Positions 1 to 34,466 of a DNA stretch of 64,000 nt are shown here, one piece after another. How positions within the stretch are numbered: the first letter of the stretch is position 1; the number at the start of each line of letters is the position of its first letter. The stretch lies in the sequence record OZ413489.1, one strand, 5' to 3'. Source of the DNA: a phage. Made by a program: the position numbers and the translations under genes. The notes below the pieces were generated by a model that saw only the letters and a program-made list of their open reading frames with translations, had not been told where the DNA came from and ran no database searches.

Positions 1-1119
1 AAAACAGCGCTGGATGCTACAATTTCCGATACCAATAAAGCCACTGTGGACCTTATCAACGGCACAGCGTCAGCTATTCGTCAAGAACTTGCTGTTGCTA
101 AGCAGGAGATCATTGATGATGTTGGGGATGTGTCTGAGATCAGGGCTGCAGTAGCTACAACATCTAAGGCTGTAACCGACTTAGAGGGTAAAGTAAATGC
201 TCAATGGGGCACAAAAATACAGGTAGACTCCGCAGGGAATAAATATGTTGCAGGTATTCAGTTGGGGATGGAAGGGTCTGGAGGCCAAGTTCAATCCTAC
301 TTCATGGTTAGCGCAAACAATTTTGCGGTATACAACCCTGGCAATGGAACAGCAACCCTTGCTTTCGCAATCAAGAACAACCAAGCGTTCTTGAAAGACG
401 CTTTTATAGAGAATGGCACGATCTCCTCTGCCAAGATTGCACAAGAAATTTCGTCAAACAACTACGATGGCAACGGGTACCATAAATACGGTTGGTATAT
501 TAACAAGAACGGGCACGCCCAATTTATGGATGTGTGGGTGAAAGGCAACATCAACGCCAGTTCTGGTAACTTCACAGGGGCAGTTAACGCCACTAGTGGT
601 ACCTTCCGTGGGGATGTTTATGCCAATAATGGTAGCTTTAGAGGCACCATAGATGCAACCGGAGGTACCTTCCGTGGTCGTGTAGAAGCTTCTGTTATCC
701 GCGCTAACCAGTTCGAAGGTGCAATTGTTGCACACAGGACTTACGGAGATTGTGCTCCAGTATATAACTCCCAGCAAAGGGTTTGCCGTTGGAGGTGGAG
801 ATACGTAGATAACGTTTCAGGTCAGGGTAAGAACGTAACATTCTTCTTTAAACTGAATGGTACTCTTGCCAGCTCCCAACTGAATGCATGGATAGCTGGT
901 CATCAGATCCTTGCTGGCAAGAAGTATTTTAACGACAACAACGGCATGTGCGCGGTAGGGATAACAGGTCTTGGTGAACAAACTATAGACATTGTTATCG
1001 AGATTTACACACCGTGGTCAACGTCGAGCGTGACAGGTGTCACAATTTCCTGTCCTACTGTGATAGTAAGTCGTTCAAACTCTAGCTTCCAGGGACCTTG
1101 GAACGAGTCTCACGACTAA
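1..1119 (+). CDS. Tail fibre / host-specificity protein, C-terminal part (5' end lies outside the window)
   Basis: Frame is open from position 1 to the stop at 1119. Contains a lambda J/side-fibre-like motif (SYFMVSANNFAVYNPGNG) and short G-x-F-x-G repeats (GNFTGAV, GTFRGDV, GSFRGTI, GTFRGRV). Terminator follows. Confidence 0.7.
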   Translation, partial: KTALDATISDTNKATVDLINGTASAIRQELAVAKQEIIDDVGDVSEIRAAVATTSKAVTDLEGKVNAQWGTKIQVDSAGNKYVAGIQLGMEGSGGQVQSYFMVSANNFAVYNPGNGTATLAFAIKNNQAFLKDAFIENGTISSAKIAQEISSNNYDGNGYHKYGWYINKNGHAQFMDVWVKGNINASSGNFTGAVNATSGTFRGDVYANNGSFRGTIDATGGTFRGRVEASVIRANQFEGAIVAHRTYGDCAPVYNSQQRVCRWRWRYVDNVSGQGKNVTFFFKLNGTLASSQLNAWIAGHQILAGKKYFNDNNGMCAVGITGLGEQTIDIVIEIYTPWSTSSVTGVTISCPTVIVSRSNSSFQGPWNESHD

Positions 1120-1127
1120 CCTTTAAA

Positions 1128-1154
1128 GCCCCGCTTCGGCGGGGTTTATTTTTA
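1128..1154 (+). terminator. Rho-independent terminator
   Basis: GC hairpin gccccgcttcggcgggg followed by tttattttta, directly after the stop at 1119. Confidence 0.7.
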
Positions 1155-1224
1155 TGCTCAGATTGACTATTGTTACAAAATTTGGTAAAATACCTTGTAG
1201 AGATTTTCATACCGGAGGAGTGAC

Positions 1225-2715
1225 GTGGCTAAGTATGGATTGACAGAGGCTGGTTTCGTTATACCAACCCTAAATGACCTAATCGTTGAAACTAAGCAAA
1301 GCCTGATCCGTGCTTTTGGCGAAAACTTCAACGTACAGAGTAACTCCGTTGCAGATAAGCTGACCACTATCTTCAACGAGCGAGAGTATCAACTTATTCT
1401 TATGGCAGCATCTGTATACGCATCACAGACGCTGTATGGGGCAGAAGGTATTTACCTAGATGAGCTTCTTGGAAGACAGGGTATTTACCGAAGAGGCCGT
1501 TCTAAATCATCAGGTACCTGCCAGTTGACAATCAACACAACTGTGCCGTACAATATGATTTATGATTCCAAAACTTATACACTGGATAGTGGCAACTTTG
1601 TTCTTAGCAATGATGTGCAGGTGGCAGGGAATCTTATTGCCCACAGAATAAATGCTCCAGACCTAAGGATTGGTAAATACAACTTTCAAATCACCAACCA
1701 GACAGATGGAAGTATCAAAACAAAAAGTCTGGTTTTAACAGATAAGTCTCTGGACTCTTCTGATCTGCCAAGCTTTTACGGAGAGATTAAGCAGTTCATT
1801 GTCGATAATACAACCCTGTTGAACGACGATTTGATTCAGATCGATATGTTGACAGGAACGTTGTGGATAGGGTACAATTCGAATCTTGATCAAGTTGGAC
1901 TTAATAGTAGGGTAGATTTCAGAGTATCCCCGATTGTAGGGGAAAGAACTATCACACTGGATGTTATCGCTAACGAGGCTGGTGAGCTGTCAAGAGAAGC
2001 AGAAACCGTGACAACAATGTCACCTACTCCTAGTGGATTTATCAAGCTTACCAACCGAGAAAGATTCAATGAGGGCAGGGATGTTGAGAAAGACTCAGAG
2101 TATCGCTTAAGAGCTTCCAGCACAAAACAGTTAACATCTAAGGCTACCCGTCCTGCAATCCTTAGCGCTGTAAGCGAGGTGAAAGGTGTTGAGAAAGTGA
2201 GAGTGTTCTCCAACAACACCGATAAAACTGATGCTAAAGGTATACCTCCTTACAAGTTCCAAGTGGTTGTGTTTGGTGGTGCAACGGAAGACATTTGCCA
2301 AGCACTTTACCAAACTATAGCCTGTACGAACAGGACTTATGGTAATATTTTCTACGATGTCACTACATCTGATGGTCAAACTGAAAGAATTTATTACTCC
2401 AAGGCAAATACCTACCGCCTAGATGTAAGAATTACCTACTCCGGTGCCGCACTTTCCACAACCGAAAAAGATGCCATTGTAGAGGCTCTTTTGCAGGTTG
2501 TTAACGGACTGGATGTTGCAGATACGTTGTATAATATCCAATTGGTCGGCGCTGCATCTGCTGCTGTATCAATAGGCAGATTTAATAGACTGGTAATTCA
2601 AGTTAAACCAGTAGGAGCTTCTGATGAAGCTTACACTACAAACGATATTGTTGCGAACATGACCGAGGTGTTTGACCTCGACGAAAGTAATATAACTTTC
2701 CAACAAACTATTTAA
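1225..2715 (+). CDS. Baseplate J-like protein (putative)
   Basis: 496 aa; RBS ggagg before the GTG start; N- and C-terminal residue patterns resemble P2 gpJ-type baseplate proteins; sits in a tail gene cluster. Confidence 0.5.
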   Translation: MAKYGLTEAGFVIPTLNDLIVETKQSLIRAFGENFNVQSNSVADKLTTIFNEREYQLILMAASVYASQTLYGAEGIYLDELLGRQGIYRRGRSKSSGTCQLTINTTVPYNMIYDSKTYTLDSGNFVLSNDVQVAGNLIAHRINAPDLRIGKYNFQITNQTDGSIKTKSLVLTDKSLDSSDLPSFYGEIKQFIVDNTTLLNDDLIQIDMLTGTLWIGYNSNLDQVGLNSRVDFRVSPIVGERTITLDVIANEAGELSREAETVTTMSPTPSGFIKLTNRERFNEGRDVEKDSEYRLRASSTKQLTSKATRPAILSAVSEVKGVEKVRVFSNNTDKTDAKGIPPYKFQVVVFGGATEDICQALYQTIACTNRTYGNIFYDVTTSDGQTERIYYSKANTYRLDVRITYSGAALSTTEKDAIVEALLQVVNGLDVADTLYNIQLVGAASAAVSIGRFNRLVIQVKPVGASDEAYTTNDIVANMTEVFDLDESNITFQQTI

Positions 2716-2726
2716 GGCGGCGAGAT

Positions 2727-3413
2727 ATGGCAGAGATTAAGTCGGATGTTAACCACATCCACACTCTGCCAGATTTTGTTCAGGGAGGTCTTGACTACCT
2801 GCCTGGAGATTTTCTGGCTGAGAAGGTTAATTTGGTCACATTCTTAACCGTGTACCTTAAAAGGTTGGAGGATGTTGATAAGATGCTGGTAGGTTTGGCT
2901 GAAGGAAGATTGCTTAACAATGCCAGCGGAAGATACCTTGACGAAGTTGGTAATCAACTTGGTATTCTTAGGAATGGACTTTCAGATGCTGATTTTCGTG
3001 CCACACTAATTATTCAGCAGGCCGCAGCATCAAGGGGCGGGACTCGCGAAGATGTCATCTCCACCTTGCGACAATTGTTCGGAAGAAACAATTTCGATAC
3101 GTGGAAAGGAGACAACTTCAGGTTTGACATAAATATTAGAAAAACTTGCTTTGACATATTGCAGTCTATCGATCAGATCTTAGATATGCTACCATTGCCT
3201 TGTCATTTGCGTCTTACAGAATCGCAAGGGCAAGCTTTTGGTTTTGAAGGGGACCATACAGCTCTTGGCTTCGGATCAGTGTGGGAAGAAAACCAATTCG
3301 GAGTTGGTGGGCTGGCTACTTTGCTGTATGTTCCTGACGTAAGACCTGATTGGGACACCACAACCATTTATTGTGAAAGTATTACAGTAAACGCAACTAG
3401 ACAGGAGGGTTAA
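2727..3413 (+). CDS. Baseplate/tail protein, gpI-like (putative)
   Basis: 228 aa; tightly coupled to flanking genes (stop/start overlap at 3413); position after the J-like gene. Confidence 0.4.
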   Translation: MAEIKSDVNHIHTLPDFVQGGLDYLPGDFLAEKVNLVTFLTVYLKRLEDVDKMLVGLAEGRLLNNASGRYLDEVGNQLGILRNGLSDADFRATLIIQQAAASRGGTREDVISTLRQLFGRNNFDTWKGDNFRFDINIRKTCFDILQSIDQILDMLPLPCHLRLTESQGQAFGFEGDHTALGFGSVWEENQFGVGGLATLLYVPDVRPDWDTTTIYCESITVNATRQEG

Positions 3414-5485
3414 TGGCAACAGCTATTTTTAAACCTTACCGTGATTACTCTACAATGGCTGCACGGTTTCATTACCGCACAGTTCAGGATACTGCAGTTC
3501 CTGGTAGGGATTATAATCATGTTGAGGGTGATGTAACTATCCCAATTGGGGCAACCAGTATTGAGATCCCAGTGGAAATTGTTGACAAATTACCCAACAG
3601 GTTGCCAAGAAGCTTCTTTATGGAGTTTTCATCAAAATCTCAAGGGGTGATGATTGGAACACAAAGGGCGAAATGTACAATAGTTTCAGATGAGAATCTT
3701 GACAGGATATCTTGGGATACTGTCGAGGAGAGAATGTTTCACCCAAGATATTGGGTTACATCTACCCAGCAGACTGAAAGCACCTGTATTGTTGCAGATA
3801 ATAACTGTTGTATTAACCGTTTAGTGTCAAGAACATATGGAGGTATGGCTGGGTGCATTTGGGAAACAGTTGACAAGTATGACCATTTCGGTATTGGGTT
3901 TGATGATCATTATGAGATGAGAAATACCAAGCTTTGGTTCAGAATGTCAATAACCAACGCCAGCAACTTCTCCACTCCTGAAAAGATGATTATGACTGTA
4001 GACCTTGTTGATGGCACAATCATCTATGTTCCTTTAGCTCAATATGCTGTCAGCATCTCAGAGGATAAGAATGTTGCAGAAATTCATATTGATTTCGAGG
4101 ACTGCGTCGGGATGGACCAGAACAACAATATGATGGGTGTTGATCCTCGACAGGTGAGAAGGATTTTAATACCGCTTATGCCTAAAGATTGGGTAAGCAA
4201 TAGCACAAACCCAAGAACGGAAAATGTAGAGTGTGAGTTGCGCCTAGATCTGCTTCAGCCAGACACAGGCTGGAAAATGATGCAACTTAACAATATTCAG
4301 GTGAAAGAACACGACGTTGGGATCTGCACAGCATATGACGATATGTGGAACGTGTCTCCTTTAAGGGTGTTGAACAATATCAAGCGTCTGGGCTATACCG
4401 GAACCATAAACCATTATGTTGGTATGAGTCATTATTATGACTACACATGGTCAGGAACTCAATGGTCTATAAACAGAACAGGAGCGCTAAACGCTGCAGC
4501 TTATAAATGGCATGATGATTTTATGTACAATGCCAAACGACATAACTTCGACGTTATGCAATCTGTAAGTTTTGAGCTTTTCAGCGATGCCTGCCCGTTG
4601 GAATGGACCCAAAGAGACTGGAACGATAACTACGCTAAAACAGGGTATACACCTTGTAGCTACCTCCTGTCTCCAACCATTGAAGAGGGTATGAATTTCC
4701 TTACTGCAGTATTTAAGAATTTTGCATCAGCCGCTATGAGAAACAACCTGCCAGTGATTATGCAGGTTGGTGAACCGTGGTGGTGGTACAATACCGATAC
4801 TCGTAGACCTTGTATTTATGATTACCCTACAAAGCAGGCGTTTTATGATGAGACAGGTGAGTATGCATTAGATATTGGGACTATTGACGATCCTAAAACT
4901 GGCGGTGTTTACGACAAGTATGTAGCATTTTGTCGTGGTAAGCTTGGCGCTCGTATTGCGGCTATTTCAAAGGCAATAAAGGCACACGCTGCATCAGCTC
5001 AGATGACAGCTCTACTGTTTTTCCCAACCATTATGGAAACCGAGCTTACGCAAAAGCTTAACCTTGCTGACCAATATAAAAAGGAAGCAGGTGCTCTTGA
5101 TTTCTTCTGCACCGAGTGCTACGATTGGGTGATGCAGGGAGGTATTGAAAAGGCAAAAGAGTCTGTAAACATACCTATCGTTAAGTTAGGTTGGCAACCG
5201 TCTGAAATACAATACCTTGCAGGGTTCGTTCCTAGTAAAGAGCTTGCTCCGGTATATGGTTACGACCCAACCAGGAATTACCAAGAATTTTTATGGAGAT
5301 GTATTTGCGGAAACATGGCAACTATAGAGTATAGATATCCTGAGGTAAAACAGTATGTGTGGGCATACCCGCAAGTAATGTCTGACAGCATCACTGTTAC
5401 CGCTAGAGATTCTACCGTGCTTCATATGGGGCAGGTTGCTCTGAAAGGGTATGTAGAAGATGTTGTCCCGCCAGACTTCTCATAA
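3413..5485 (+). CDS. Tail fibre / baseplate structural protein
   Basis: 690 aa ORF, start overlaps upstream stop (ATGG); within tail module; no recognisable enzymatic motif. Confidence 0.55.
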   Translation: MATAIFKPYRDYSTMAARFHYRTVQDTAVPGRDYNHVEGDVTIPIGATSIEIPVEIVDKLPNRLPRSFFMEFSSKSQGVMIGTQRAKCTIVSDENLDRISWDTVEERMFHPRYWVTSTQQTESTCIVADNNCCINRLVSRTYGGMAGCIWETVDKYDHFGIGFDDHYEMRNTKLWFRMSITNASNFSTPEKMIMTVDLVDGTIIYVPLAQYAVSISEDKNVAEIHIDFEDCVGMDQNNNMMGVDPRQVRRILIPLMPKDWVSNSTNPRTENVECELRLDLLQPDTGWKMMQLNNIQVKEHDVGICTAYDDMWNVSPLRVLNNIKRLGYTGTINHYVGMSHYYDYTWSGTQWSINRTGALNAAAYKWHDDFMYNAKRHNFDVMQSVSFELFSDACPLEWTQRDWNDNYAKTGYTPCSYLLSPTIEEGMNFLTAVFKNFASAAMRNNLPVIMQVGEPWWWYNTDTRRPCIYDYPTKQAFYDETGEYALDIGTIDDPKTGGVYDKYVAFCRGKLGARIAAISKAIKAHAASAQMTALLFFPTIMETELTQKLNLADQYKKEAGALDFFCTECYDWVMQGGIEKAKESVNIPIVKLGWQPSEIQYLAGFVPSKELAPVYGYDPTRNYQEFLWRCICGNMATIEYRYPEVKQYVWAYPQVMSDSITVTARDSTVLHMGQVALKGYVEDVVPPDFS

Positions 5486-5497
5486 TCAGGAGATAAA

Positions 5498-6538
5498 ATG
5501 TCAAAACCTAGTTTTCCATTAGAGATTTGGGCAGAGGAGGATCAGGTTCTGCCTAACACCCACAGACAGAACAGGCTACGCCCGATTGATGATTTGTGGA
5601 GAAAAGGTTGGGATCTTGGTCAAAAGCCCTCATGTGAAGAACTTAACTATATTTTCAATATGCTCGGGACTTGGGCAAAATACATCGCTGACGAGCAGAT
5701 CCCCGCTCAAGAAGGCCGTTATCTGGTACGTGATAATAACTTGAGTGATCTTTTGAACATTCCTGTTGCCCGTAGAAACCTTGGGATTATTACTAAGGAA
5801 GAGGCAGACGCCAGGTATGTAAAAGTTACAGGTGATACAATGACAGGCCCATTGGGTTTGCAACGTATCAACTTTAAAGCTGCCGAGTCAGATAAGGCTT
5901 GGATAGAGACAACTATTGGCCCAGATAAGACAACTCTCGACTTTGGGTTAAGTGATAATACCGGGTCGTTTGATGATGGTGGTACATCTACAGTGGATGC
6001 GTTCCGTTGGAGATTCCAGCCAACTCAGCCGGATATTAATCCAGAGTTCACTTTGATGTACCTTAACGCGATCACGGCTAACCGTGCGCTGTTGAAAGTG
6101 GTAGGCAATGTTGAAGTTGTCGATAACATGAGGTGCAATAACCTTACTATCAGCAATACAGCGACATTCACCAACTGTAATGTGGCTAGTCAGTTGACGG
6201 CTGGGTCAGTGTATGTTAATGGTGGTGCAAGTTGTGACAGTATGGTTGTAAGAAGCCAGCACTGTGTTGTCGGTAACAGAAATGTGGTTCGCTCTGTGAA
6301 CGGAGTGACGGCTAACGGTAACGGTGATGTAACGATCACTATCCCGCAGACAGGTGTGCAAGACATCAGAATCGGTGCAAGACTTGTTGACGGCGTTTCC
6401 GAATCTCCAATTCGCAACGGCTACGTTGTCACAGGCTGGCATTTCGGTGACAAAAAAGAGATGCGTGGTTCAACCTACTGGGCAGGACCTTTACAAAAAC
6501 TTGTAAACGGTCAATGGATCACTGTTAATTATGCATAG
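5498..6538 (+). CDS. Tail fibre protein (receptor-binding candidate), paralogue 1
   Basis: 346 aa; homologous over its full length to 7553-8596; shared C-terminus QKLVNGQWITVNYA; GDTMTGPLGLQRI motif common in tail fibres. Confidence 0.7.
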   Translation: MSKPSFPLEIWAEEDQVLPNTHRQNRLRPIDDLWRKGWDLGQKPSCEELNYIFNMLGTWAKYIADEQIPAQEGRYLVRDNNLSDLLNIPVARRNLGIITKEEADARYVKVTGDTMTGPLGLQRINFKAAESDKAWIETTIGPDKTTLDFGLSDNTGSFDDGGTSTVDAFRWRFQPTQPDINPEFTLMYLNAITANRALLKVVGNVEVVDNMRCNNLTISNTATFTNCNVASQLTAGSVYVNGGASCDSMVVRSQHCVVGNRNVVRSVNGVTANGNGDVTITIPQTGVQDIRIGARLVDGVSESPIRNGYVVTGWHFGDKKEMRGSTYWAGPLQKLVNGQWITVNYA

Positions 6539-6552
6539 ATCGGAGGACTAGC

Positions 6553-7137
6553 ATGAAAATACTTCAAGAGTTTAAACTTTACCAACCGGGATCTGGCGAA
6601 TACCACTCCAACAAGGAAACCAAGGAGCTGACCCCTCAAGAGGTTGAGGATTACACCGCATACACTGGGTATTTTTTACGTAATGATGATGGCGATTGGT
6701 ATGTGCAGTCACGAACATTACGACAAGAAAATCCGGGTTGTATCTTCCTACTTGTTGACGAGAAGGGAATTCTTAAGACATCTACAGAAGAACCTGATGC
6801 CTTATGGCCTGCTCCAGGTCTTCGTGTGGTTATCGCCAAAAAAGAAGAGGTACCAGAAAACATTATGCTTCACCACGACGCTTTGCGTTTAGTTGGTGAT
6901 GAATTTGTCACAGATAATGAATTCTTTGTTCAACAGGCAGAGGGTGTCATAGAGACAGAACTTGCTTGGGCTACTGCTAGAATTGGTGCCTATCAAGACA
7001 TGATTGACCTTGAATATGATCTTACTGATGACCAGAAACGTAACATCAGAGATTTGAAAATGTACAGGGTAAAACTTCTTGAAATAGATACATCTAAAGC
7101 CCCTGACATTTTCTTCCCGGAGCGACCTACCCTCTAA
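6553..7137 (+). CDS. Tail fibre assembly chaperone (Tfa-like)
   Basis: 194 aa; C-terminal motif MYRVKLLEIDTSKAPDIFFPERP matches the conserved Tfa C-terminus (YR..L..iD.S.APDI.WP..P). Confidence 0.75.
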   Translation: MKILQEFKLYQPGSGEYHSNKETKELTPQEVEDYTAYTGYFLRNDDGDWYVQSRTLRQENPGCIFLLVDEKGILKTSTEEPDALWPAPGLRVVIAKKEEVPENIMLHHDALRLVGDEFVTDNEFFVQQAEGVIETELAWATARIGAYQDMIDLEYDLTDDQKRNIRDLKMYRVKLLEIDTSKAPDIFFPERPTL

Positions 7138-7463: not shown

Positions 7464-7552
7464 ACAAAGGTCAGAACGGAAAGGACTCCGTTCTTGCATT
7501 TTGTTCTCTAAAGTGTTAAAATAGTCCTAAGGAATTTTCTCAGGAGAACGTG

Positions 7553-8596
7553 ATGACTAAACCAGTTATCCCTCTTGATATTTGGGCCAATCAGGATGTT
7601 GTGCTTGAAAATACGGGAGAGTTGAATAAATCTCAACCAAAAAAAGAAGAGAGATTGAAAGGTTGGGATATGACACAAAGAGTGGCATGTGAAGTTGTTA
7701 ACTTTGAACTCCACATGCTTTCTGCGTGGTTAAAGCATTTAACAGAAGATGTTGTCCCAGGATGGGATAATAGATTCTTAAGGGTCACTAATAATCTAGC
7801 AGACGTTCCAGACAAAGCTGCTGCACGTCAAGTTCTCAATGTATACTCGCCTGAAGAAATGGACGATCTGTATGTTGACAAGTCTGGAGACATAATGACT
7901 CAGACTCAAACTTTAGGCCTTCAAAGAATCGAGTTTGCATCTGCGTCAACAGACAATGCGGCAATATATACCACCATAACTCCAGACAAGACGACGATGG
8001 ATTTCTGGATTATGGACAACATCGGTGGTGCTGACGGCACAGACCTTGATGATCCTTCTCACCAAATAGACGGGTTCCGTTGGAGATTTCAACCTTCTGG
8101 TGGGCAGCCTGTGTTTTCGGCTATGAAGCTCAATGCTATAACTGCCAACCGTGCAAGACTGGCCATCCAAGGAAATCTTGAATGCAACGATGCAAAAAGT
8201 TCCTCTGCAAATGCCAATGCGGTCACGATACCAAGAGCCACTGTTAACGGACAACAATCCTGCGGAATCGCTCAAATAGGTGGAAGAGTTGATTGTAACG
8301 ATGAAACAGTCAGGGGTCAATATGCAACAGTTGGTGGAAGAAACGTGGTCCGCAGGGTAAATGGTAACGGCGCAGACAGTAGTGGTAACCTTACTATCCC
8401 TATGCCCAGCAGAGGGGTTGATGATGTAAGGATAGCAAACCGTTTCAAAACCACCTACAGAGAGTCAAGAGTCTACCCTGGACATGTGATGTGCTCTGGT
8501 AACTACGCTTATAAACACCCTTATCAAGGTGATTACTGGACAGGTGCTATCCAAAAACTTGTAAATGGTCAATGGATCACTATATCTTATGCTTAA
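7553..8596 (+). CDS. Tail fibre protein (receptor-binding candidate), paralogue 2
   Basis: About 347 aa from the ATG at 7553 (RBS caggag); homologous to 5498-6538; C-terminus QKLVNGQWITISYA. Confidence 0.7.
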   Translation: MTKPVIPLDIWANQDVVLENTGELNKSQPKKEERLKGWDMTQRVACEVVNFELHMLSAWLKHLTEDVVPGWDNRFLRVTNNLADVPDKAAARQVLNVYSPEEMDDLYVDKSGDIMTQTQTLGLQRIEFASASTDNAAIYTTITPDKTTMDFWIMDNIGGADGTDLDDPSHQIDGFRWRFQPSGGQPVFSAMKLNAITANRARLAIQGNLECNDAKSSSANANAVTIPRATVNGQQSCGIAQIGGRVDCNDETVRGQYATVGGRNVVRRVNGNGADSSGNLTIPMPSRGVDDVRIANRFKTTYRESRVYPGHVMCSGNYAYKHPYQGDYWTGAIQKLVNGQWITISYA

Positions 8597-8607: not shown

Positions 8608-8874
8608 ATGAAACTAACTCAGTTTTTATGGGGACTGGTTGCGGCATCTGATGACCCTACGAAAGTGTCCCAAACTAAGCTATGGTCGAACATAGGCATG
8701 GCGGTGATGACTGGGGTGTTTATTCATATGGGGTATAATGATACGCTTCCTGAATGGTATGCGTGGATATACGCGCCTTCAGTAGCTTGCCCCCAGCTTA
8801 TTAGCAAATTCATCTCGCTCCGGTGGGGTTGCCAGCACCCTGACCACGTTAAAAACGAAGAGCAAAAAGCTTAA
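8608..8874 (+). CDS. Small membrane protein
   Basis: 88 aa; hydrophobic segment NIGMAVMTGVFIHMGY; RBS agagggtaa. Confidence 0.4.
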   Translation: MKLTQFLWGLVAASDDPTKVSQTKLWSNIGMAVMTGVFIHMGYNDTLPEWYAWIYAPSVACPQLISKFISLRWGCQHPDHVKNEEQKA

Positions 8875-10638: not shown

Positions 10639-10668
10639 AACCGCTCCTGACGGGGCGGTTTTCTTATC
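10639..10668 (+). terminator. Rho-independent terminator
   Basis: Hairpin accgctcc-tgac-ggggcggt followed by tttcttatct. Confidence 0.65.
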
Positions 10669-10679
10669 TGGAGAACACA

Positions 10680-13600
10680 ATGCTTCCAATCCCTTTGCTA
10701 AAACTTGGTCGTCATTTCCTCGATAAGAGGGGTGGAATTAAGGAACTTGCTGTTCTGTCATACCCAATAGACAACAGTGATGGTACAAGCAACACAGTAT
10801 CCTATGTAAATAGCTTAGCTATACTTTTTGATGATGGTCAGCTTAATATTACTGGCTATAATAGGTTCGGAGAGTGTCGGACTGGAGATCTTGATACAAT
10901 AAACTATCCTAATGAGGCAGCTTGGAACGTAGACCATGTTTGGAGAGCTGACCGTGCATTTGTAATCCGCACATTCGATAATAAATTTTTCTATATTGGT
11001 TGCACAGCTGGTCTTATCGGATCGGAGGCAGCAGGTGGAAACGATGTTTGTGTCAGAGAGTGGACACCTTTGCCGGAACAGATCGTAACAGGGTTGCATT
11101 TGGACACCCATCCTGAGAGACTTGTTGAAGTAATGGGTGGCGTAAACAATACAGTGTGGGTAATTGCTGCACCAGAGGCTGATGGTATGCTTCACCTGTA
11201 CGGCTCTGGCAATAATACTTACGGCTCTCTTCATGTTGACAAAAGTCAACACGCTACTCCAGTTAAGATCGGTGAAACATCTGAAAGTCCAGAGACAGGT
11301 CCTTGGAAAAATCCAAGAATTAATTGTGAAGTTCATGACAACTCGGTTATTTTTGGTGGTCCTAACGGATTCTGGATTGCAGGTTACGATTTCTTAAGAA
11401 ATAACAGCAAAAACACACTAGTTTATCCAGCCGAGCATGTGACTCTTGACCAGTTTAAAGGCATCCCGGTGGGCGAGACATGGAAAGGGTTCATGTGTGG
11501 ACCTAATGGTGCAATTATAGCCACAGAAAGGATGCACAAACCTGATGACCAACAGCTTGTTAACGTATTCTACGGGCAAGACGTCTGGGGAGATGACACA
11601 TGGCGTTCCTTAAATATCACCTACACCCATGAGGTGATAATGGCTCGTGGATACGGCACAAGTGGCATTTTCTTCAATAATGGCACTAAACAGTATCGTG
11701 GATTCTCTCGCAACTTGTGTAATGATATTGGTGCACAATCTGCAAACAATAGCCCTAGGGCTAATTTTATCCACTATCAGGCTCTTGCTACAGCTAAATA
11801 TGTTGAGCAACGCCTGCCAGTTAGCTGGACAGAGAGTGTTTATTTCCAAGGCATCCACAGGGAAGGTTTCTTAGGAACCTTTACTGTTGTTAATGGCAAA
11901 CTTTGGTGGTCAGGCATCCCAAGGGGGAGTTTTGCAGGATCTAACAACCTCTTTGGCGGCAGACTTAACAGCCAAGGGTTCACAGAGATTCCGGAGAATT
12001 GGTATAAAAATGTCCCGGTAGATAGCTGGGGTATCGAAGACATCTTTGATGTCAATGGTGTGAGCAATGTTAGCAACATTTACATCGGAGATACTGTCAA
12101 GATGAAATTGAAACCTCAGCCGGAGGGTGCTACGTTCATTATTGACAAGATTGAGTTGGTAAATGCTGCAGGCACTGTTGTTACAGATGCAAACTATCAG
12201 TTCTCCACTAACTGGAACCATGGTGGTGCTAACGAAGTTGTGGTCACCCAGTATAACCGTAACATCAACAGACGTGGTTTGTATTCTATCAAGATCACCT
12301 ACCATGACAAGCATGGCACTGGAAGAACCTGTACGACAAGGACTTTGAACTGGAACACTATAGTTCCTGCGTATCCGTCCAACGGCAAGTGGCATACCGT
12401 TGGTAGAAACAAGCAGTTCCATGTTAACGATACTGTATACTTTGGGCTGAATGGGACCCAGCCTGCAGTAGAAGGGGATACATCGTATATGGTCAGACTC
12501 CACAGAATGGATGCTGGATCAGTCACTTATGATGTGACCCAAGAGATCTACGATCAAAGACGCGCCACGTATGACAATATTGTGAAAACACAAGCCTTGT
12601 GGAAGTTCAATCCTAATGGCAAGGGTGGTAAAATGTTGCAGGTTAATGAGCAGAACGGAACGTCGTTGACTGTTCACGAACACCCAGACCCTTGGCCTGA
12701 TCCTGGAAAACCTCACCCGGGAGCTCGTACACTGAAAATTGTCAGCCATGATGCAGGGTATTTCGGAATACGCTGGGAAGCTACAGTAAGATATGTCGAC
12801 GGGACAACAAACAACATAGGGATTACACTTGGCGGCACTAGTGAAGATAACTCGCTGAAAATTGCCTACACGCCTAGAGGTATCTCTATTGATAATATGG
12901 ATGTTGTTCGCAATGGTTACGGCGATGTGAATGTCAAAGTTACTCTTGGCGAACATCTTGGTGGGGAAAGGATCATCATGTATGCCTTTGATCATGATCC
13001 ACGCACCAATGGAACTTATGCAAATCAGGCATGGAGTTACCTGATAAATGCACCTGAGCCGAATACTAAAGAGTTCTACTATGGTATGAAGCGAGATGTG
13101 TGCAAGAAAACAGGAACACATGACTGGATTGCTATCTGCGTTAAAGATGAGCGCACAGCTTGGGATGAGCCTGTTAACAGATGGTTCATAGGTATTCCTA
13201 CCAGAAGTGATAAGTATGTCGCAGAATATATTGTATGCATGGGCGGTACCAACCTAAACATGTGTTGGAACGAAGATGTAAACAAATACTCTGATTATGA
13301 CTATATGAGGGATTACTCTTGTAATTTGTGGTTTAACCAAACTACAGGTTACCCTCCGCGTCAGGCAAGGGTAAATCCTGCAATCTTTACAGATACGCAG
13401 GTTTTCTTGACAAAACAGGCCAACGAGGTTCAGACCTTCAAGAATAACTATGACCCTAACAAGTGGTTCTACAACTGTTACGGCGCATTTTTCTGGGGAC
13501 CTGGTGAGTTACCTGGTGGAGGATCTTGCTTGAATGAGGCAACTTACGCCAGTGACTACATCATGGGGCAGGTCAAGAAGTATAAGATAATCCCCGGTCC

Positions 13601-16316
13601 TGAGACTCTGGGCAATGCCGTTGACCCTTATATCATCATGACTGCACTGAGATCAAACATGGACGGGACATCCATGTCTATGCAAATTCCGGTAACAAAC
13701 GGGTACAAACGTGTTGTGATGATCATTAAGTGCGATCTGATCGGGAAGCAAGTTCTTGCAGAAAACGGGACATCCACACATCCTTTTGAGATCGCTCTGC
13801 ACTATCAGTTTGCTGACTCACCTTTTGCAGGGGATAAGAGAATATCTGATACAGACGCACAGCGTTGTAAGAAAGTATTGTTGGGTGCAGGTTGGTGGTG
13901 GTATGAGTTTGATTTAACAGACAAATTCACCGACACGTCTAAAGTTGTAACAGGACTTCGTCTAGACCTTGGCGAGAACATGCACAAAGCTGTTTGTGAT
14001 GGCACCTATGGTGACCCTACAATATACCTAAAATATGTTTCTTTTGAGCATCCGGAAGATGTTGTCTACGGTCCAAAACTGAGATTGTTTGGCAGCTGGA
14101 TTGCAAAAGATAGGGTAGGCATGGGTAAGAAGGTAAGAGGGCTCTTGGTTGATGCAGGAACAGAAGACATGCTGGTTAATGCAGTGTGGCCTGAATTACC
14201 TGGGACTCAGTGGGACAACTCAGCCAAATCTATAAACTGGTTTAACATTCATAGGGCCATGTGGACCACTAACTGCTACTTGTGGAGAGAGCTTAACGAT
14301 CAGGCCTTTGGATTCAGCGATGGTAGAAGGATGGCGATCATTTGCTGGACAACACTGCAAAGATGTTATGACCATGACTATGAGATTGGGGGCAGGGCAT
14401 GGAAAAATATCAGGGATAGAATCATAACCAATTTTGCAGACGACAACGGTGGTGGAGCACATAACTTTGGCACAAGCCGACTCATCCATTTGAACGGATC
14501 CTCAGCCTACAAGAAAGAAGGTTACTCTGGGTCTATGATCGAGTGGGGTCTGGTGAAAGATGCTCGCGTATTGATGGGCCAGCAACTTGCTGCCGCAATA
14601 GGTCCCAGCGCAGTGCAGTCGGTTAAACCAGCGTGGTTCGATATTCCATTGTGGTCACCCGGAACACCGGGAACTGCTGCAATCAACCCTACCACTGGGG
14701 ATCTAGAAATCTCCTGGGAGGACTTGAAGCAGGTCGGTGGTTGGGACAAAACAGGGTACCAGGTTCAGTGGTGGAGAGCTGATGGATCTTTAGCTGCTGA
14801 TGAGTTTGTTAAGGACAATTTCTACACTATGTCCTCTGCAAAAGCACAGCAATTATTTGGTCAGGCAACTCCGTCAACGATCACCATGTCTATGTGCTGT
14901 AAAGACAACAGGACTGGAGCTTTGGGGCCAAGGGTTGCTAAAGTTTTCTCAGGTATTAAATGGAATCTACCTGTCCAAAGTATTTCATGGAAGCAAATAG
15001 GTGATAACAAGCTGCTGGTTACCCCTGCCTGTCAGTTCAACGCAACTCTTAACGTTGATCCTGCTGTTGCGGCAAACTCAGCTAAAGCTTCTGACTTCTC
15101 TGTGTCTAACACTGCTATGGCAGATGTGAGGAAGATTGACACGCTGAACGCCAGAATTACCTGTAAAAACACTTATGGCACATTCCAGATCATCAACAAC
15201 TTCACAGATGCTGATTCTAAGGTAGTGAGGACAGCAAGCCAGACTTTGAGTTTAGGAACTCTGGCCTATGCGGCCCTGATCACTGAACAGTCGGCAACAC
15301 TCCAAGGAGGTGGTGTAGGCAAGTCCATTACAACACCTGTGTGGAAGCCAAATGAGTGGGTTGTGTTTGATTTGACTGTGGACTTCTCCAGCGATAATAA
15401 CTGGACATGGGTAAGGAATTGTTTGTCACAGTTGATGGGCGGTCCAAGCTCCGTTAGTGATAGTCACGACTCTACTGACCCGAGTGTGTTCCAGGTAGGT
15501 AAAACTCACCCAGAGACTGGAGAAACGTTGCCTGACAGGAAGTATGCTTTGGTTTGCATCTCTTACGGGAAGGCAGATGTCACCTTCTCAGGGACACACA
15601 CTTATAACGGAACCTACAACTTCTCAAGGAAGTATAGTCTCAAAGCAGGGAACATTATAGACGAGGTTGGTGTGCTGTATAATCCGGGCAACGGCATAGG
15701 GATTGTTGGTGGTAAACTGCAGATGCAGGAACCTTCTATTACCCCTTCCAACGTATCCGGGATTAGAAAGACTTGGGAAAGTAGTAATACCAACATTGCA
15801 ACAGTGGATGCCACCACAGGACTGGTAACATTTAAAGCTACTGGGAATGTCACCATAAAGTTTGTAGTTACAGATGATGCAGGGCGCAAAACGTCTTCAA
15901 CATCTTTTACTGTCAAACAGATGGCACCACAGTGGAGAATGTGGATAGGTACAGCAACAAACGGGGCATACCCTAATCCGGCAGGTACTTCTGGTATGAA
16001 GACTTTCTCTACAAGCAAACCGATGGAGTACGGCAGCGGTCCTAAGGTAGGGCAGATGGTGTACTTTGGTGCGTATATTCCTGAAATTATAGGGCTTCCG
16101 AGAAGTCAGCTTCAGTTGCTGTTTGGGGCTGGTGTTGACGATCTTGCCACTTTCGGGTATAGCGACAACATCGAGGCTGCAAGGAGTTCAGGATGGGTAG
16201 GGTTCAGAATGGAGTCTGGAAAGGAAGGCAGGATTCTAGGGACAGCCTCTATAGGTGTTATGTTCCCTGGTGACCAGCAGTATCGTCTAGAAGCCTACGC
16301 AACCTTTTCTCGTTAA
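10680..16316 (+). CDS. Large virion-associated protein with bacterial Ig-like (Big_2-type) repeat
   Basis: 1878 aa single ORF; near the C-terminus a segment (SNVSGIRKTWESSNTNIATVDATTGLVTFKATGNVTIKFVVTDDAGRKT) has the Big_2 pattern; last gene of the late block. Confidence 0.65.
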   Translation: MLPIPLLKLGRHFLDKRGGIKELAVLSYPIDNSDGTSNTVSYVNSLAILFDDGQLNITGYNRFGECRTGDLDTINYPNEAAWNVDHVWRADRAFVIRTFDNKFFYIGCTAGLIGSEAAGGNDVCVREWTPLPEQIVTGLHLDTHPERLVEVMGGVNNTVWVIAAPEADGMLHLYGSGNNTYGSLHVDKSQHATPVKIGETSESPETGPWKNPRINCEVHDNSVIFGGPNGFWIAGYDFLRNNSKNTLVYPAEHVTLDQFKGIPVGETWKGFMCGPNGAIIATERMHKPDDQQLVNVFYGQDVWGDDTWRSLNITYTHEVIMARGYGTSGIFFNNGTKQYRGFSRNLCNDIGAQSANNSPRANFIHYQALATAKYVEQRLPVSWTESVYFQGIHREGFLGTFTVVNGKLWWSGIPRGSFAGSNNLFGGRLNSQGFTEIPENWYKNVPVDSWGIEDIFDVNGVSNVSNIYIGDTVKMKLKPQPEGATFIIDKIELVNAAGTVVTDANYQFSTNWNHGGANEVVVTQYNRNINRRGLYSIKITYHDKHGTGRTCTTRTLNWNTIVPAYPSNGKWHTVGRNKQFHVNDTVYFGLNGTQPAVEGDTSYMVRLHRMDAGSVTYDVTQEIYDQRRATYDNIVKTQALWKFNPNGKGGKMLQVNEQNGTSLTVHEHPDPWPDPGKPHPGARTLKIVSHDAGYFGIRWEATVRYVDGTTNNIGITLGGTSEDNSLKIAYTPRGISIDNMDVVRNGYGDVNVKVTLGEHLGGERIIMYAFDHDPRTNGTYANQAWSYLINAPEPNTKEFYYGMKRDVCKKTGTHDWIAICVKDERTAWDEPVNRWFIGIPTRSDKYVAEYIVCMGGTNLNMCWNEDVNKYSDYDYMRDYSCNLWFNQTTGYPPRQARVNPAIFTDTQVFLTKQANEVQTFKNNYDPNKWFYNCYGAFFWGPGELPGGGSCLNEATYASDYIMGQVKKYKIIPGPETLGNAVDPYIIMTALRSNMDGTSMSMQIPVTNGYKRVVMIIKCDLIGKQVLAENGTSTHPFEIALHYQFADSPFAGDKRISDTDAQRCKKVLLGAGWWWYEFDLTDKFTDTSKVVTGLRLDLGENMHKAVCDGTYGDPTIYLKYVSFEHPEDVVYGPKLRLFGSWIAKDRVGMGKKVRGLLVDAGTEDMLVNAVWPELPGTQWDNSAKSINWFNIHRAMWTTNCYLWRELNDQAFGFSDGRRMAIICWTTLQRCYDHDYEIGGRAWKNIRDRIITNFADDNGGGAHNFGTSRLIHLNGSSAYKKEGYSGSMIEWGLVKDARVLMGQQLAAAIGPSAVQSVKPAWFDIPLWSPGTPGTAAINPTTGDLEISWEDLKQVGGWDKTGYQVQWWRADGSLAADEFVKDNFYTMSSAKAQQLFGQATPSTITMSMCCKDNRTGALGPRVAKVFSGIKWNLPVQSISWKQIGDNKLLVTPACQFNATLNVDPAVAANSAKASDFSVSNTAMADVRKIDTLNARITCKNTYGTFQIINNFTDADSKVVRTASQTLSLGTLAYAALITEQSATLQGGGVGKSITTPVWKPNEWVVFDLTVDFSSDNNWTWVRNCLSQLMGGPSSVSDSHDSTDPSVFQVGKTHPETGETLPDRKYALVCISYGKADVTFSGTHTYNGTYNFSRKYSLKAGNIIDEVGVLYNPGNGIGIVGGKLQMQEPSITPSNVSGIRKTWESSNTNIATVDATTGLVTFKATGNVTIKFVVTDDAGRKTSSTSFTVKQMAPQWRMWIGTATNGAYPNPAGTSGMKTFSTSKPMEYGSGPKVGQMVYFGAYIPEIIGLPRSQLQLLFGAGVDDLATFGYSDNIEAARSSGWVGFRMESGKEGRILGTASIGVMFPGDQQYRLEAYATFSR

Positions 16317-16328
16317 CAAGGGGGTAAA

Positions 16329-16360
16329 TAAAAAGGGGCCAAACGGCCCCTTTCTTTTTA
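16329..16360. terminator. Bidirectional rho-independent terminator
   Basis: aaaaa-ggggcc-aaac-ggcccc-tttcttttta: hairpin flanked by A-tract and T-tract, between convergent genes ending at 16316 (+) and 16364 (-). Confidence 0.75.
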
Positions 16361-32340: not shown

Positions 32341-34408
32341 ATTTATGGCATCTGCATACAACCGTTTCGGTGAGCCAAACCCGAAAGCAACTAAGTATAA
32401 AAGTGGGGGAAGTGTGAAACGAGACTATCGTGATGAAAAAGAGATTGAAACTGTAGAGACTGTTTTAGAAAATACTAAAATCGTCCCTGTCCCACAACAA
32501 AATATCGGTCTGATGGCTGCACAATATTTTGGTGTGCGATCAGCATTGTCCCAAGAAGACGGTGTGACAGTTACTGCAACATATTTCCCATATTACGACC
32601 GCTACGGGAATCTGTCCGGTTTCAAAAAGCGTGACTGGACGATTCCTAAAGAGCAAAGGGGCCATTTCTCCGTTGTTGGCATAGTAAAGGCCAACTCCCA
32701 GATGTTTGGTCAAAAGCTGTGTGCATCTTCCAACAACCGTAAGCAGATTAACGTTTGTGAGGGGGAAGGTGATGTTATTGCAGCATGGCAGGCTGCATAT
32801 CAGATACAAGTAAAAGGGATTCTCACCAACGCTAAAGCCCCGGCAAAGGTGAAGCAGTGGGCTAAAGAAGTCCAGGACGGGATCGATGCAGTTATCAACG
32901 GTGGTGATCTGGCAGGAAAACCATGCCTGCCTTTTGTTGGAATTAACTGTGGATGTGCAAACGCAGTAGATACTTTTGCAAACAATGAGAAGTTTATCCG
33001 TAGCTATGGAACAGTTGTGCTGGCAATGGATAACGATGCAGCTAACGAGGTAGAGAAGCAAAAACACGTCATTAAAGGTGTTGAGGCCACGCACAATATC
33101 GCAGCATTTTTGATGGCTGATAACGTTTACCACGTAGAATACCCTGGTGAAGTAAACGACCCTGACGGTGTAAAAGATATCCGAGACATGCTGAAGGCTA
33201 AAAAGCTGGAAGATATTGTCAACATGTTCCGGCATCCTGTTAAATATGTGCCTGATGCGGTGTCGGATTTAGAAGACTTCTCTATCGAGTCTTTGCGGAA
33301 AAAGACTTCCAACGGGGTAGATATCAGCGCAGAGTTCCCAAAACTGCAAAAAATGCTAAAAGGCTTGCACAAAGGGACACTCGTAATGCTTACAGGTCCA
33401 TCAGGTGGCGGTAAAACAACCGTAGCTAAAAAACTGGAACACTGTATTGCAAGATACCTAATGGACCCGACATGCCCGAAGGCTGATGACTATGAAGAGG
33501 ATGATCGTCTATGTATGATCCATCTTGAGGAGGACCCAGAGGAAGCAATTAACTCCTTGTATGCAAACCAGTTAGGGTTTGATGTTAAAGAGTTTGTTGA
33601 AGATCCTAGCCAGTTTTTAACTGATCAAGAACACGCAGAGATTCACCAATCATGGGCAAAAGCTGGAAAAATCAAAGTGTTCAAACATTTCGGGTCTATT
33701 CCGGTGGATGAGTTGATTACCAAGCTTAAGCAAATGGTTTGCCTGTACCATTGCCGTTATATTGTGCTGGATCACCTGTCCATGGTAATTTCAGGGCTTA
33801 ATGTTAAGGATGAGCGAAAAGAACTGGACATGGCTATGACTCAGCTGGCTGCGTTTTGTAAGCAGTTTAACGTGTTTATCTTGGTGATCGCTCACCTCAA
33901 ACGTACAGAGATTGTGCCTCCTAAGGACAAGGATGGTAACCCGTTACCTTTCTGGTATCCTGTGCGAAAAGAGAATTTGCGAGGATCGGCGGGGCTTGAA
34001 CAGTTGAGTTGGGTAGTCATAGGTGTCGAGGCCGAAGAAATGGTGGATCGTTCTCGTGGACGTGTCCGTCTGGTAGGTCTTAAAAACCGTCCAGCAAAAA
34101 CTCTAGGTATTGCTGACACTTTGGTTATGGACCCGCACACAGGTAAGTTCCATGATGCCAGTAATTGGTACTGGGACAAAGAAATGCAGATGTTTACAGA
34201 CGGAGAAGGTGGGGAGGTTGTTTGGAGACCTCAGGCCATGTTTGAGGACCAAGAGCATGCAGTTGTAGAAACACCTATGGGCAAGGTTGTAGCCGATAAG
34301 GTTGTAACTCCTACTATTAAGCCTGTTGACACGCAGGAAGACCTCCAGTACGATGATCCATCCTCTGATCCGGTCCCCGGTTTTGAGGATGATGAAACAC
34401 CTTTTTAA
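32330..34408 (+). CDS. Primase-helicase (TOPRIM + DnaB-like)
   Basis: 692 aa; TOPRIM-like VLAMDNDAANE; Walker A LTGPSGGGKTT; Walker B-like VLDHLS in the C-terminal half. Confidence 0.8.
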   Translation: MGSKFMASAYNRFGEPNPKATKYKSGGSVKRDYRDEKEIETVETVLENTKIVPVPQQNIGLMAAQYFGVRSALSQEDGVTVTATYFPYYDRYGNLSGFKKRDWTIPKEQRGHFSVVGIVKANSQMFGQKLCASSNNRKQINVCEGEGDVIAAWQAAYQIQVKGILTNAKAPAKVKQWAKEVQDGIDAVINGGDLAGKPCLPFVGINCGCANAVDTFANNEKFIRSYGTVVLAMDNDAANEVEKQKHVIKGVEATHNIAAFLMADNVYHVEYPGEVNDPDGVKDIRDMLKAKKLEDIVNMFRHPVKYVPDAVSDLEDFSIESLRKKTSNGVDISAEFPKLQKMLKGLHKGTLVMLTGPSGGGKTTVAKKLEHCIARYLMDPTCPKADDYEEDDRLCMIHLEEDPEEAINSLYANQLGFDVKEFVEDPSQFLTDQEHAEIHQSWAKAGKIKVFKHFGSIPVDELITKLKQMVCLYHCRYIVLDHLSMVISGLNVKDERKELDMAMTQLAAFCKQFNVFILVIAHLKRTEIVPPKDKDGNPLPFWYPVRKENLRGSAGLEQLSWVVIGVEAEEMVDRSRGRVRLVGLKNRPAKTLGIADTLVMDPHTGKFHDASNWYWDKEMQMFTDGEGGEVVWRPQAMFEDQEHAVVETPMGKVVADKVVTPTIKPVDTQEDLQYDDPSSDPVPGFEDDETPF

Positions 34409-34423
34409 TGTTTAACAAAGAGT

Positions 34424-34452
34424 GGGAGGGGTAGTACAACCGCCTCCCCTTT
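34424..34452 (+). terminator. Possible weak terminator / hairpin
   Basis: gggagg...cctccc hairpin followed by a short T run; weak. Confidence 0.3.
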
Positions 34453-34466
34453 AAGGAGAACTGTAT

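Follow-up and report, generated by a model that had tools for sequence, protein, structure and literature searches.

Phages related to rV5 (genus Vequintavirus) are common therapeutic and biocontrol candidates with an unusually broad host range, and the BASEL study noted that the genes behind their several sets of fibres have yet to be sorted out. Among their genes is the one for rV5 gp27, a protein of 1878 amino acids (aa; 208,334 Da). This gene is long catalogued, having been annotated since 2008–2013. The more than 100 copies in GenBank carry the label "Ig-like domain protein" or "lateral tail fiber protein with intimin domain", the latter being the BASEL name for the orthologue. Since rV5 gp27 was previously described, its existence, its size and its immunoglobulin (Ig) domain are already on record. 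In the papers on rV5-like phages and their relatives we found no demonstrated function for any gp27 orthologue, and the receptor papers on these phages attribute no receptor to it. Here we describe the orthologue encoded at positions 10680–16316 of a 64,000-nucleotide (nt) stretch of phage record OZ413489.1, hereafter the window. We propose that gp27 is a very large accessory adhesin fibre of the virion tail, present in few copies and conditionally dispensable, a reading to which we assign a probability of about 0.55. What is new here is an RCC1-like N-terminal module, an orphan core of 490 aa and the conditional dispensability of the protein; a first-pass annotation of the window, made from the sequence alone, held none of these, nor the identity with rV5 gp27.

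The source phage is an rV5-like Vequintavirus: its gp27 gene is 98.4% identical at the nucleotide level to that of phage naam, and the protein matches phrog_15684 over residues 1–1878 of 1878 (4527.8 bits in a PHROG scan). At least 80% of the gene is covered in 108 phage records, at 87–98% nucleotide identity. Orthologues are 93–99% identical to the window protein, of equal length and in the same position, always 3ʹ of the gp28-type fibre gene; the family comprises 15 clusters found, 43–94% identical to the window protein. As the first-pass annotation stated, the gene is the largest in the window, by far (the next longest open reading frame, or ORF, has 809 aa), and it closes the tail block. 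It is the final + strand gene before a strand switch, with − strand genes from 16.8 kb on, and the GC skew flips at ~16 kb, at its end. On its 5ʹ side lie the genes for a baseplate wedge, a baseplate protein, an N4-gp65-like TIM-barrel fibre and two paralogous short tail fibres with a chaperone, followed by that for a 581-aa fibre. The gene, its flanking elements and the parts of its product are listed below; structures were predicted with AlphaFold2 (AF2) for aa 1–850 and aa 836–1878, using 10-sequence family alignments, and confidence is given as the predicted local distance difference test (pLDDT).

10639–10668, + strand: terminator-like hairpin and T-rich run; 9-bp stem with 6 G-C pairs, loop TGAC
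10670–10673, + strand: ribosome-binding site (RBS) GGAG of gp27, read from the sequence, 6 nt before the ATG
10680–16316, + strand: gp27 ORF, 1878 aa, uninterrupted; ATG at 10680, stop codon at 16314–16316
10680–12014, + strand: aa 1–445, RCC1-like (beta-propeller-type) module, proposed virion-docking end
12015–13199, + strand: aa 446–840, beta-sandwich (Ig-like) domains, family-specific and allele-variable; all-beta in AF2
13200–14672, + strand: aa 841–1331, orphan core, 490 aa
14673–14969, + strand: aa 1332–1430, FN3-like beta-sandwich; pLDDT 60–77, weak fn3 match (E 0.04)
14970–15449, + strand: aa 1431–1590, the most divergent segment between family branches (12–46% identity)
15450–15935, + strand: aa 1591–1752, two Ig-like domains including Big_2; pLDDT 80–92
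15723–15878, + strand: aa 1682–1733, Big_2; 33.5 bits versus a cut-off of 22.8, E 4e-8
15936–16313, + strand: aa 1753–1878, beta-sandwich "tip" of 126 aa, proposed ligand-binding end; pLDDT ~55–70
16332–16353, + strand: terminator-like hairpin and T-run; 9-bp stem, 16 nt after the gp27 stop codon

The whole gp27 ORF is under strong purifying selection and every part of it is maintained. The ratio of nonsynonymous to synonymous substitution rates (dN/dS) is ~0.07 over the whole ORF and 0.05–0.09 in all well-sampled segments. A fusion artefact of two genes can be set aside: more than 100 genomes conserve the ORF along its full length, with dN/dS of about 0.07 in every segment, and the split versions that exist are derived lesions of that conserved ORF. 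Such lesions are recurrent, and were seen in several phages that had been isolated independently and propagated in the laboratory. Different nonsense, frameshift or deletion lesions break the gene in at least 6–8 of ~110 isolates, and the seven that we characterised lie at seven different sites.

Phage ime: 2-bp deletion, stop at codon 1056
Phage naswa: 1-bp deletion (−1 frameshift) in a G-run, stop at codon 788
Phage Alma: 1-bp deletion (−1 frameshift), stop at codon 239
Phage magaca: Tyr617 to TAG, nonsense
Phage phita32: Gln1439 to TAA, nonsense
Phage YP-6: 1-bp insertion (+1 frameshift), stop at codon 405
Phage APECc02: 1-bp insertion and 2,956-bp internal deletion, with frameshift and loss of nt 1292–4247

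In phage V18 the gene is likewise fragmented. For comparison with other genes of these phages, split or truncated coding sequences (CDSs) were counted in 60-row samples of ~120 records, as annotated by the depositors and with some records being duplicates.

gp27 gene, 5.6 kb: 6 split or truncated records
Primase/helicase and DNA polymerase genes, 4.6 kb: 0 split or truncated
NGR-binding fibre gene, 2.1 kb: 0 split or truncated
Adjacent fibre gene, 1.75 kb: 1 split (Alma)

Six of the seven split events fall in 40% of the sampled sequence (p ~0.02, by our own binomial estimate). Sequencing error is an unlikely source of the two nonsense substitutions, the 2-bp deletion and the 3-kb deletion. The genomes indicate that viable, plaque-forming phages exist in which the gp27 gene is inactivated, even if a few of the lesions may be errors of sequencing. 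A truncated gp27 of 557 aa, 94% identical over the first 445 aa, was also found on contigs of up to 61 kb (P0017). This form stands for 77 member sequences from assemblies of public read sets, and truncated alleles therefore circulate beyond the isolates in GenBank. Because purifying selection is combined with an enrichment of inactivating lesions, we suggest that the gene is required in nature and can be lost when the phages are propagated in the laboratory. Host-genetic studies with E. coli K-12 (BASEL) and TK001 found dependence only on NGR and enterobacterial common antigen (ECA) and on the core of lipopolysaccharide (LPS), and a comparative analysis of receptor-binding proteins likewise pointed only to NGR/ECA and the LPS core. 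Since host genetics point to these structures only, no essential receptor is left for gp27 on K-12 or TK001.

The first ~445 residues have the highest identity of all parts of gp27 across the family. Residues 45–197 match PF25390 at E 8e-5 and RCC1_2 at E 0.008, and PF25390 is matched in 12 of 16 family members. Only four loose G-x-N-x-x-G-type motifs were seen, and AF2 gives pLDDT values of 20–60 for residues 1–445. A word-indexed homologue search with the N-terminus returned family fragments only; it is the tail proteins of two other genera that reveal a wider relationship. The first ~207 aa are 39% identical (E 2e-29) to an 890-aa "tail protein" of Phapecoctavirus, tuntematon gp128, with a second, collinear match at 393–440. 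That protein matches PF25390 at 7e-11, as well as the propellers of RPGR, UVR8 and HERC2 in the PDB (E 2e-4 to 5e-3). In the Seunavirus counterpart (SalP219, 604 aa), PF00415 passes its cut-off (36.6 versus 21.7 bits). We therefore label aa 1–445 of gp27 an RCC1-like module, by transitive homology through these tail proteins of the two other genera. A 318-aa "hypothetical protein, partial [Eggerthella lenta]" at NCBI (P0019) is 98% identical to part of the gp27 N-terminus, and is probably phage contamination of a bacterial assembly.

The counterparts, tuntematon gp128 and the SalP219 tail protein/PVP-SE1 gp40 (604 aa), share with gp27 only the N-terminal module. In Vequintavirus, Phapecoctavirus and Seunavirus alike, the gene with this module is always the last of the tail block, directly before the strand switch, with a hairpin and T-run in front of it, and in all three the protein has Big_2 on the distal side of the module. 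The counterparts differ from gp27 in being two to three times shorter and in lacking both the tip cassette and the orphan core; in Phapecoctavirus the Big_2 is followed by a leucine-rich-repeat-like end, and in Seunavirus the module continues into Big_2. Hence, the threefold range in length (1878, 890 and 604 aa) reflects the differing distal parts. RCC1-type proteins seem to be recurrent structural components in the Vequintavirinae: in Escherichia phage W70, of another genus of this subfamily, three stand-alone RCC1-domain proteins of ~40 kDa (W70_237–239) were reported as abundant in the virion proteome by mass spectrometry (MS). Unlike gp27, these proteins stand alone, are encoded elsewhere in the genome and belong to a different PHROG, phrog_4219, and the PHROG scan detected no direct similarity between that family and the gp27 N-terminus. 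The papers on phages phiTE and CB7 contain nothing on RCC1-type or gp27-type proteins.

The gene is bracketed by hairpins. The hairpin at 10639–10668, found by a pattern scan, folds at −16.7 kcal/mol and sits between the stop codon of the upstream fibre gene (10629) and the gp27 RBS. It is identical in 8 other Vequintavirus copies, and in phage Alma it is annotated as "terminator". Phapecoctavirus and Seunavirus have a hairpin and T-run of different sequence at the equivalent place, such that in all three genera the spacer of ~45–50 nt before the gene consists of a G+C-rich hairpin, a T-run and then the RBS. We infer that this hairpin acts as an attenuating terminator; attenuated read-through before the RBS would in turn mean low expression of gp27. 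The hairpin at 16332–16353, which likewise has equivalents after the stop codons of the Phapecoctavirus and Seunavirus genes, appears to mark the end of the rightward tail operon.

Beyond the N-terminal module, most of gp27 looks in the structure models like a string of beta-sandwich domains. Big_2 (PF02368) is the sole domain above the Pfam curated threshold and the single Ig-like domain recognisable by sequence; the remaining beta-sandwiches were seen only in structure prediction, and single domains of this kind are the usable output of the AF2 models. The region around residues 735–850 is predicted at pLDDT ~80 and matches NCAM/PD-1-type Ig folds, and weak matches to Bact_surface_Ig-like domains were found at ~506–558 in 12 of 16 family members. 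The segment from 446 to 840 varies between alleles, identity between the window protein and a 75% identical relative (P0002) being only 58–70% across most of it. The family scan also gave weak fn3 matches for aa 1332–1430. The family alignment is continuous over residues 1–1433, highly divergent over 1434–1585 and ~37% identical over 1585–1860; aa 1431–1590 are mostly low-confidence beta structure in AF2. Foldseek searches with the confident parts (PDB twice, BFVD once) returned generic tandem Ig-like arrays only. For the C-terminal model these were cadherins, the S-layer proteins Sap, SbsB and SbsC, NUP210, the GhpA grappling hook and Ig-decorated phage proteins, including Hoc-like proteins and PVP-SE1 gp40; nothing like a beta-helix, a coiled-coil shaft or an enzyme was returned for this model. 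PDB sequence searches with gp27, two family profiles and the cross-genus N-terminal profile found nothing beyond the Ig domain. At least one Ig-like segment near the C-terminus had been noticed from the start, and such a domain is real. It had been described as a repeat, and neither DNA comparison nor protein self-comparison detected any internal repeat in gp27; "Ig-like repeat" should hence read "one Ig-like domain". A Pfam scan, in a copy that perhaps lacks the model, found no match to PF26918.1 in the window protein, and a cluster representative 94% identical to it (P0001) carries a precomputed match to that family, which may name one of the unassigned domains of gp27.

It is at the C-terminus that gp27 genes differ most sharply between isolates. 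The tip exists as two recombining alleles with a sharp boundary at gene nt ~5256 (aa 1752), where the Big_2-containing domain ends. Many genomes match the window gene over nt 1–5256 only, and in phage magaca the nucleotide identity falls from 95–99% to 52–71% at this boundary. In the final 294 aa, identity to the window protein, which carries the commoner tip allele, is at least 95% in ~72 records and ~80% in ~36. The tip also has the highest dN/dS in the gene, 0.16. Among close orthologues the whole gene is a nucleotide mosaic in which blocks of ~100% identity lie beside blocks of 73–85%, and allelic variation at this locus was noted independently by BASEL. We regard the mosaic and the tip-allele boundary as a signature of host interaction.

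The orphan core (aa 841–1331) consists of a Cys/Trp-rich stretch, a confidently predicted beta-sandwich (~966–1125; pLDDT 65–83) and a highly conserved, probably helical block (~1126–1331; pLDDT below 50) with the invariant motifs GTEDMLVN.VWP, SINWFN.HRAMW, EIGG and EGY..SMIEWG. Its dN/dS is ~0.05. When 1.84 billion representative proteins were searched with a HMMER profile of the core, there were 2 matches, both members of the family, and no relatives outside the family were found in the word-indexed search, Pfam or the PDB. Since homologue searches returned only the family, a deeper alignment of gp27 could not be built.

What could be the role of such a protein in the virion? The designation of gp27 as a virion protein, with which the first-pass annotation began, has direct support that is weaker than was assumed there: in the rV5 virion proteome, gp27 was identified by three semi- or non-tryptic peptides with modest scores (3.1% coverage), and was listed among 19 proteins found in purified virions. 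The rV5 paper also describes thin fibres of 70 nm, and we speculate that about a dozen small domains strung together could span a length of this order. We propose that the RCC1-like module would dock gp27 to a conserved baseplate or fibre component, that the beta-sandwich chain would form a thin, flexible stalk, and that the core, the swappable tip or both would bind a surface structure, whether glycan or protein. The upstream hairpin would limit read-through such that few copies are made; low copy number is suggested by the conserved position of the hairpin in three genera together with the low MS coverage. The protein would be monomeric, and probably is not a classical trimeric fibre. Its ligand would matter on natural hosts or in the gut rather than on E. 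coli K-12, where the NGR glycan and the LPS core would suffice for infection.

Several observations weigh against this proposal. The three rV5 peptides are the only direct virion evidence that we found for gp27. The orientation, with the N-terminus docked and the C-terminus distal, is by analogy with other fibres, and the missing trimerisation motifs are negative evidence only for the oligomeric state. The RCC1 matches of gp27 itself fall far below the curated cut-offs (22.5 versus 150 bits for PF25390; 16.4 versus 22 bits for RCC1_2) and are confined to residues 45–197; residues 200–445 have no Pfam match and the cross-genus N-terminal profile has no match in the PDB. The AF2 models are poor overall, with a mean pLDDT of 42 for aa 1–850 and 52.5 for aa 836–1878, and hence the seven-bladed propeller fold, the helical block and the number of domains are to be read as provisional. 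Dispensability is open to objection too. The naswa and YP-6 lesions are in homopolymer runs, where sequencing error is possible, and the counts of split genes depend on depositors' annotations and include the duplicates mentioned above. Phage Alma has two annotated CDSs in place of the adjacent fibre gene as well; because of this second split, the Alma frameshift in gp27 may reflect the quality of the assembly.

An alternative explanation is that gp27 is one of the three canonical trimeric lateral tail fibres of the Vequintavirinae, and a primary receptor-binding fibre. The gene is in the lateral tail fibre locus, where BASEL both applied that label and saw allelic variation; three fibre sets have been seen in the related phage phi92, of which fibre II has no assigned gene; and the thin 70-nm fibres of rV5 would fit. 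However, Pfam and PHROG searches of gp27 matched no coiled-coil, triple beta-helix, collar or intramolecular-chaperone family, and its predicted domains are globular beta-sandwiches such as those of monomeric adhesins. The sole tail-fibre chaperone gene (6553–7137) sits with the short fibre genes, 3.5 kb 5ʹ of gp27, and the gene directly 3ʹ is on the opposite strand. Repeated inactivation in viable isolates is difficult to reconcile with a primary receptor-binding role, the fibres credited with receptor binding on K-12 are the deacetylase fibre and the short ones, and no phi92 record was among the matches listed in protein searches of phage genomes. We consider the lateral-fibre explanation unlikely. 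An Ig-bearing, dispensable protein could also be a Hoc-like decoration or whisker on the capsid or neck that adheres weakly to glycans, for example those of mucus. Hoc is dispensable as gp27 is, Hoc-like outer capsid proteins are among the fold neighbours of gp27, and its last 290 aa match phrog_215, a "structural protein with Ig domain" family in the head and packaging category. Yet the N-terminus matches phrog_11922, in the tail category, the gene closes a tail/baseplate operon in three genera in which the counterparts are annotated as tail proteins, and rV5 already decorates its head with another protein, gp61, which was detected at 85% coverage. A place on the head or neck is therefore improbable.

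Could gp27 instead carry an enzyme, such as a tail-associated polysaccharide depolymerase, with its catalytic site in the orphan core? The block at 1126–1331 is under strong constraint and rich in invariant Glu, Asp, His and Arg residues, and the neighbouring fibre genes of these phages carry glycan-active domains. We nevertheless give this explanation only a very small chance, since gp27 matched no enzyme family in Pfam, NCBIfam or PHROGs and no solved enzyme among PDB sequences, no beta-helix is predicted and the core has no relatives outside the family. The lack of any enzymatic motif agrees with the initial reading of the window. That reading offered three options, of which the long fibre or adhesin-type protein fits best; the depolymerase is not supported, as no beta-helix, pectate-lyase, hydrolase or lyase family was matched and the fold matches of the confident parts are Ig-like arrays only, and we conclude that gp27 is not a depolymerase or enzyme-bearing tailspike. 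The last alternative places gp27 outside the virion, as a late product of infection that is non-structural or secreted. Weak MS evidence, a terminator-like hairpin before the gene and dispensability would all be compatible with it. On the other hand, the gene adjoins tail genes, in the same orientation, in three genera, the architecture is typical of Ig-bearing structural proteins of phages, gp27 is among only 19 proteins in purified rV5 virions, and inspection of the N-terminus reveals no signal peptide or membrane segment. A protein outside the virion is, in our view, the least probable of these explanations.

The proposal that gp27 is an accessory tail adhesin can be extended, tentatively, to a combined reading that we hold to be doubtful: the orphan core would be a new ligand-binding or catalytic fold for a structure absent from laboratory E. 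coli (candidates being a structure of the capsule or O-antigen class, a mucosal glycan of the host animal or a surface protein); gp27 would be a conditionally essential, environment-specific determinant of host range or niche adherence; and the RCC1-like module would be an unrecognised docking adaptor that spans genera of rV5-like myoviruses and accepts swappable distal domains. If gp27 is indeed a conditionally dispensable adhesin that is silently lost during propagation on K-12, production strains and passaging could alter the performance of a phage on clinical or gut targets while leaving the laboratory titre unchanged, and the conserved docking module with its varied distal domains would be a natural handle for engineering.

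The product of the gene at 3413–5485 (+ strand, 690 aa) has a TIM-barrel of the N4-gp65-like non-contractile tail sheath type (PF23845, E 4e-80), an NCTSP_N domain and a weak Calx-beta match just below threshold (26.5 versus 27 bits); this fibre has been linked to the ECA/NGR glycan receptor of vequintaviruses by BASEL and by a 2026 preprint. The genes at 5498–6538 and 7550–8596 (+ strand) are paralogous short tail fibre genes, both in phrog_4465, separated by the tail-fibre assembly chaperone gene and a small ORF, and correspond to the pair described for rV5 gp33 and gp30. An 88-aa ORF at 8608–8874 (+ strand) belongs to phrog_1322, which is filed as membrane protein or moron, and is kept at the same place in Seunavirus (L010, 3747–4016). 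Between the primase/helicase and DNA polymerase genes (~34408–34467), relatives including FFH2, JES2013, navn, WalterGehring and Mangalyan have an extra HNH/homing-endonuclease gene, which splits the match in two; the window has none. Unannotated "Campylobacter phage" records with C. jejuni as host (15 or 16 within MG065635–MG065682) are 90–98% identical to E. coli vequintaviruses across both the gp27 gene and the control genes, and probably are mislabelled or contaminant genomes.

How does gp27 compare with known adhesins and fibres? Like intimin/invasin and the S-layer proteins Sap and SbsB, it combines a tandem beta-sandwich stalk with a distinct distal domain, and its Big_2 is directly similar to intimin D1/D2 and to Sap. 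This similarity is restricted to aa 1591–1752, and the PDB match to intimin to aa 1687–1735. Unlike intimin/invasin, gp27 lacks a beta-barrel anchor and a lectin-like D3 domain. An assignment as intimin was rejected, NCBIfam NF033627 scoring 22.4 bits versus a cut-off of 1400 with 39 residues aligned; as judged from the sequence, the "intimin domain" of the existing label is one Ig domain only.

The side fibres of other phages offer a second comparison. Lambda Stf and the L-shaped fibres of T5 (pb1) resemble gp27 in that they are associated with the tail, are variable or mosaic, serve the phage on natural hosts and can be dispensed with on K-12. The stf gene of lambda PaPa carries a frameshift. 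For T5-like side fibres, dispensability on K-12 and usefulness on natural hosts were described by BASEL. Stf and pb1 differ from gp27 in being trimeric fibres with shafts and chaperones, features that are not detectable in gp27. T4 Hoc is similar in a different respect: it too places Big_2/Ig domains on a non-essential structural protein, with presumed weak adherence to glycans. Ig-like decoration proteins of phages were reportedly the subject of "Ig-like domains on bacteriophages" by Fraser et al. in 2006. Hoc, however, is a protein of ~40 kDa bound to the capsid, whereas gp27 is a protein of 208 kDa that is encoded in a tail operon and that combines its Ig domains with a propeller-type module and an orphan core.

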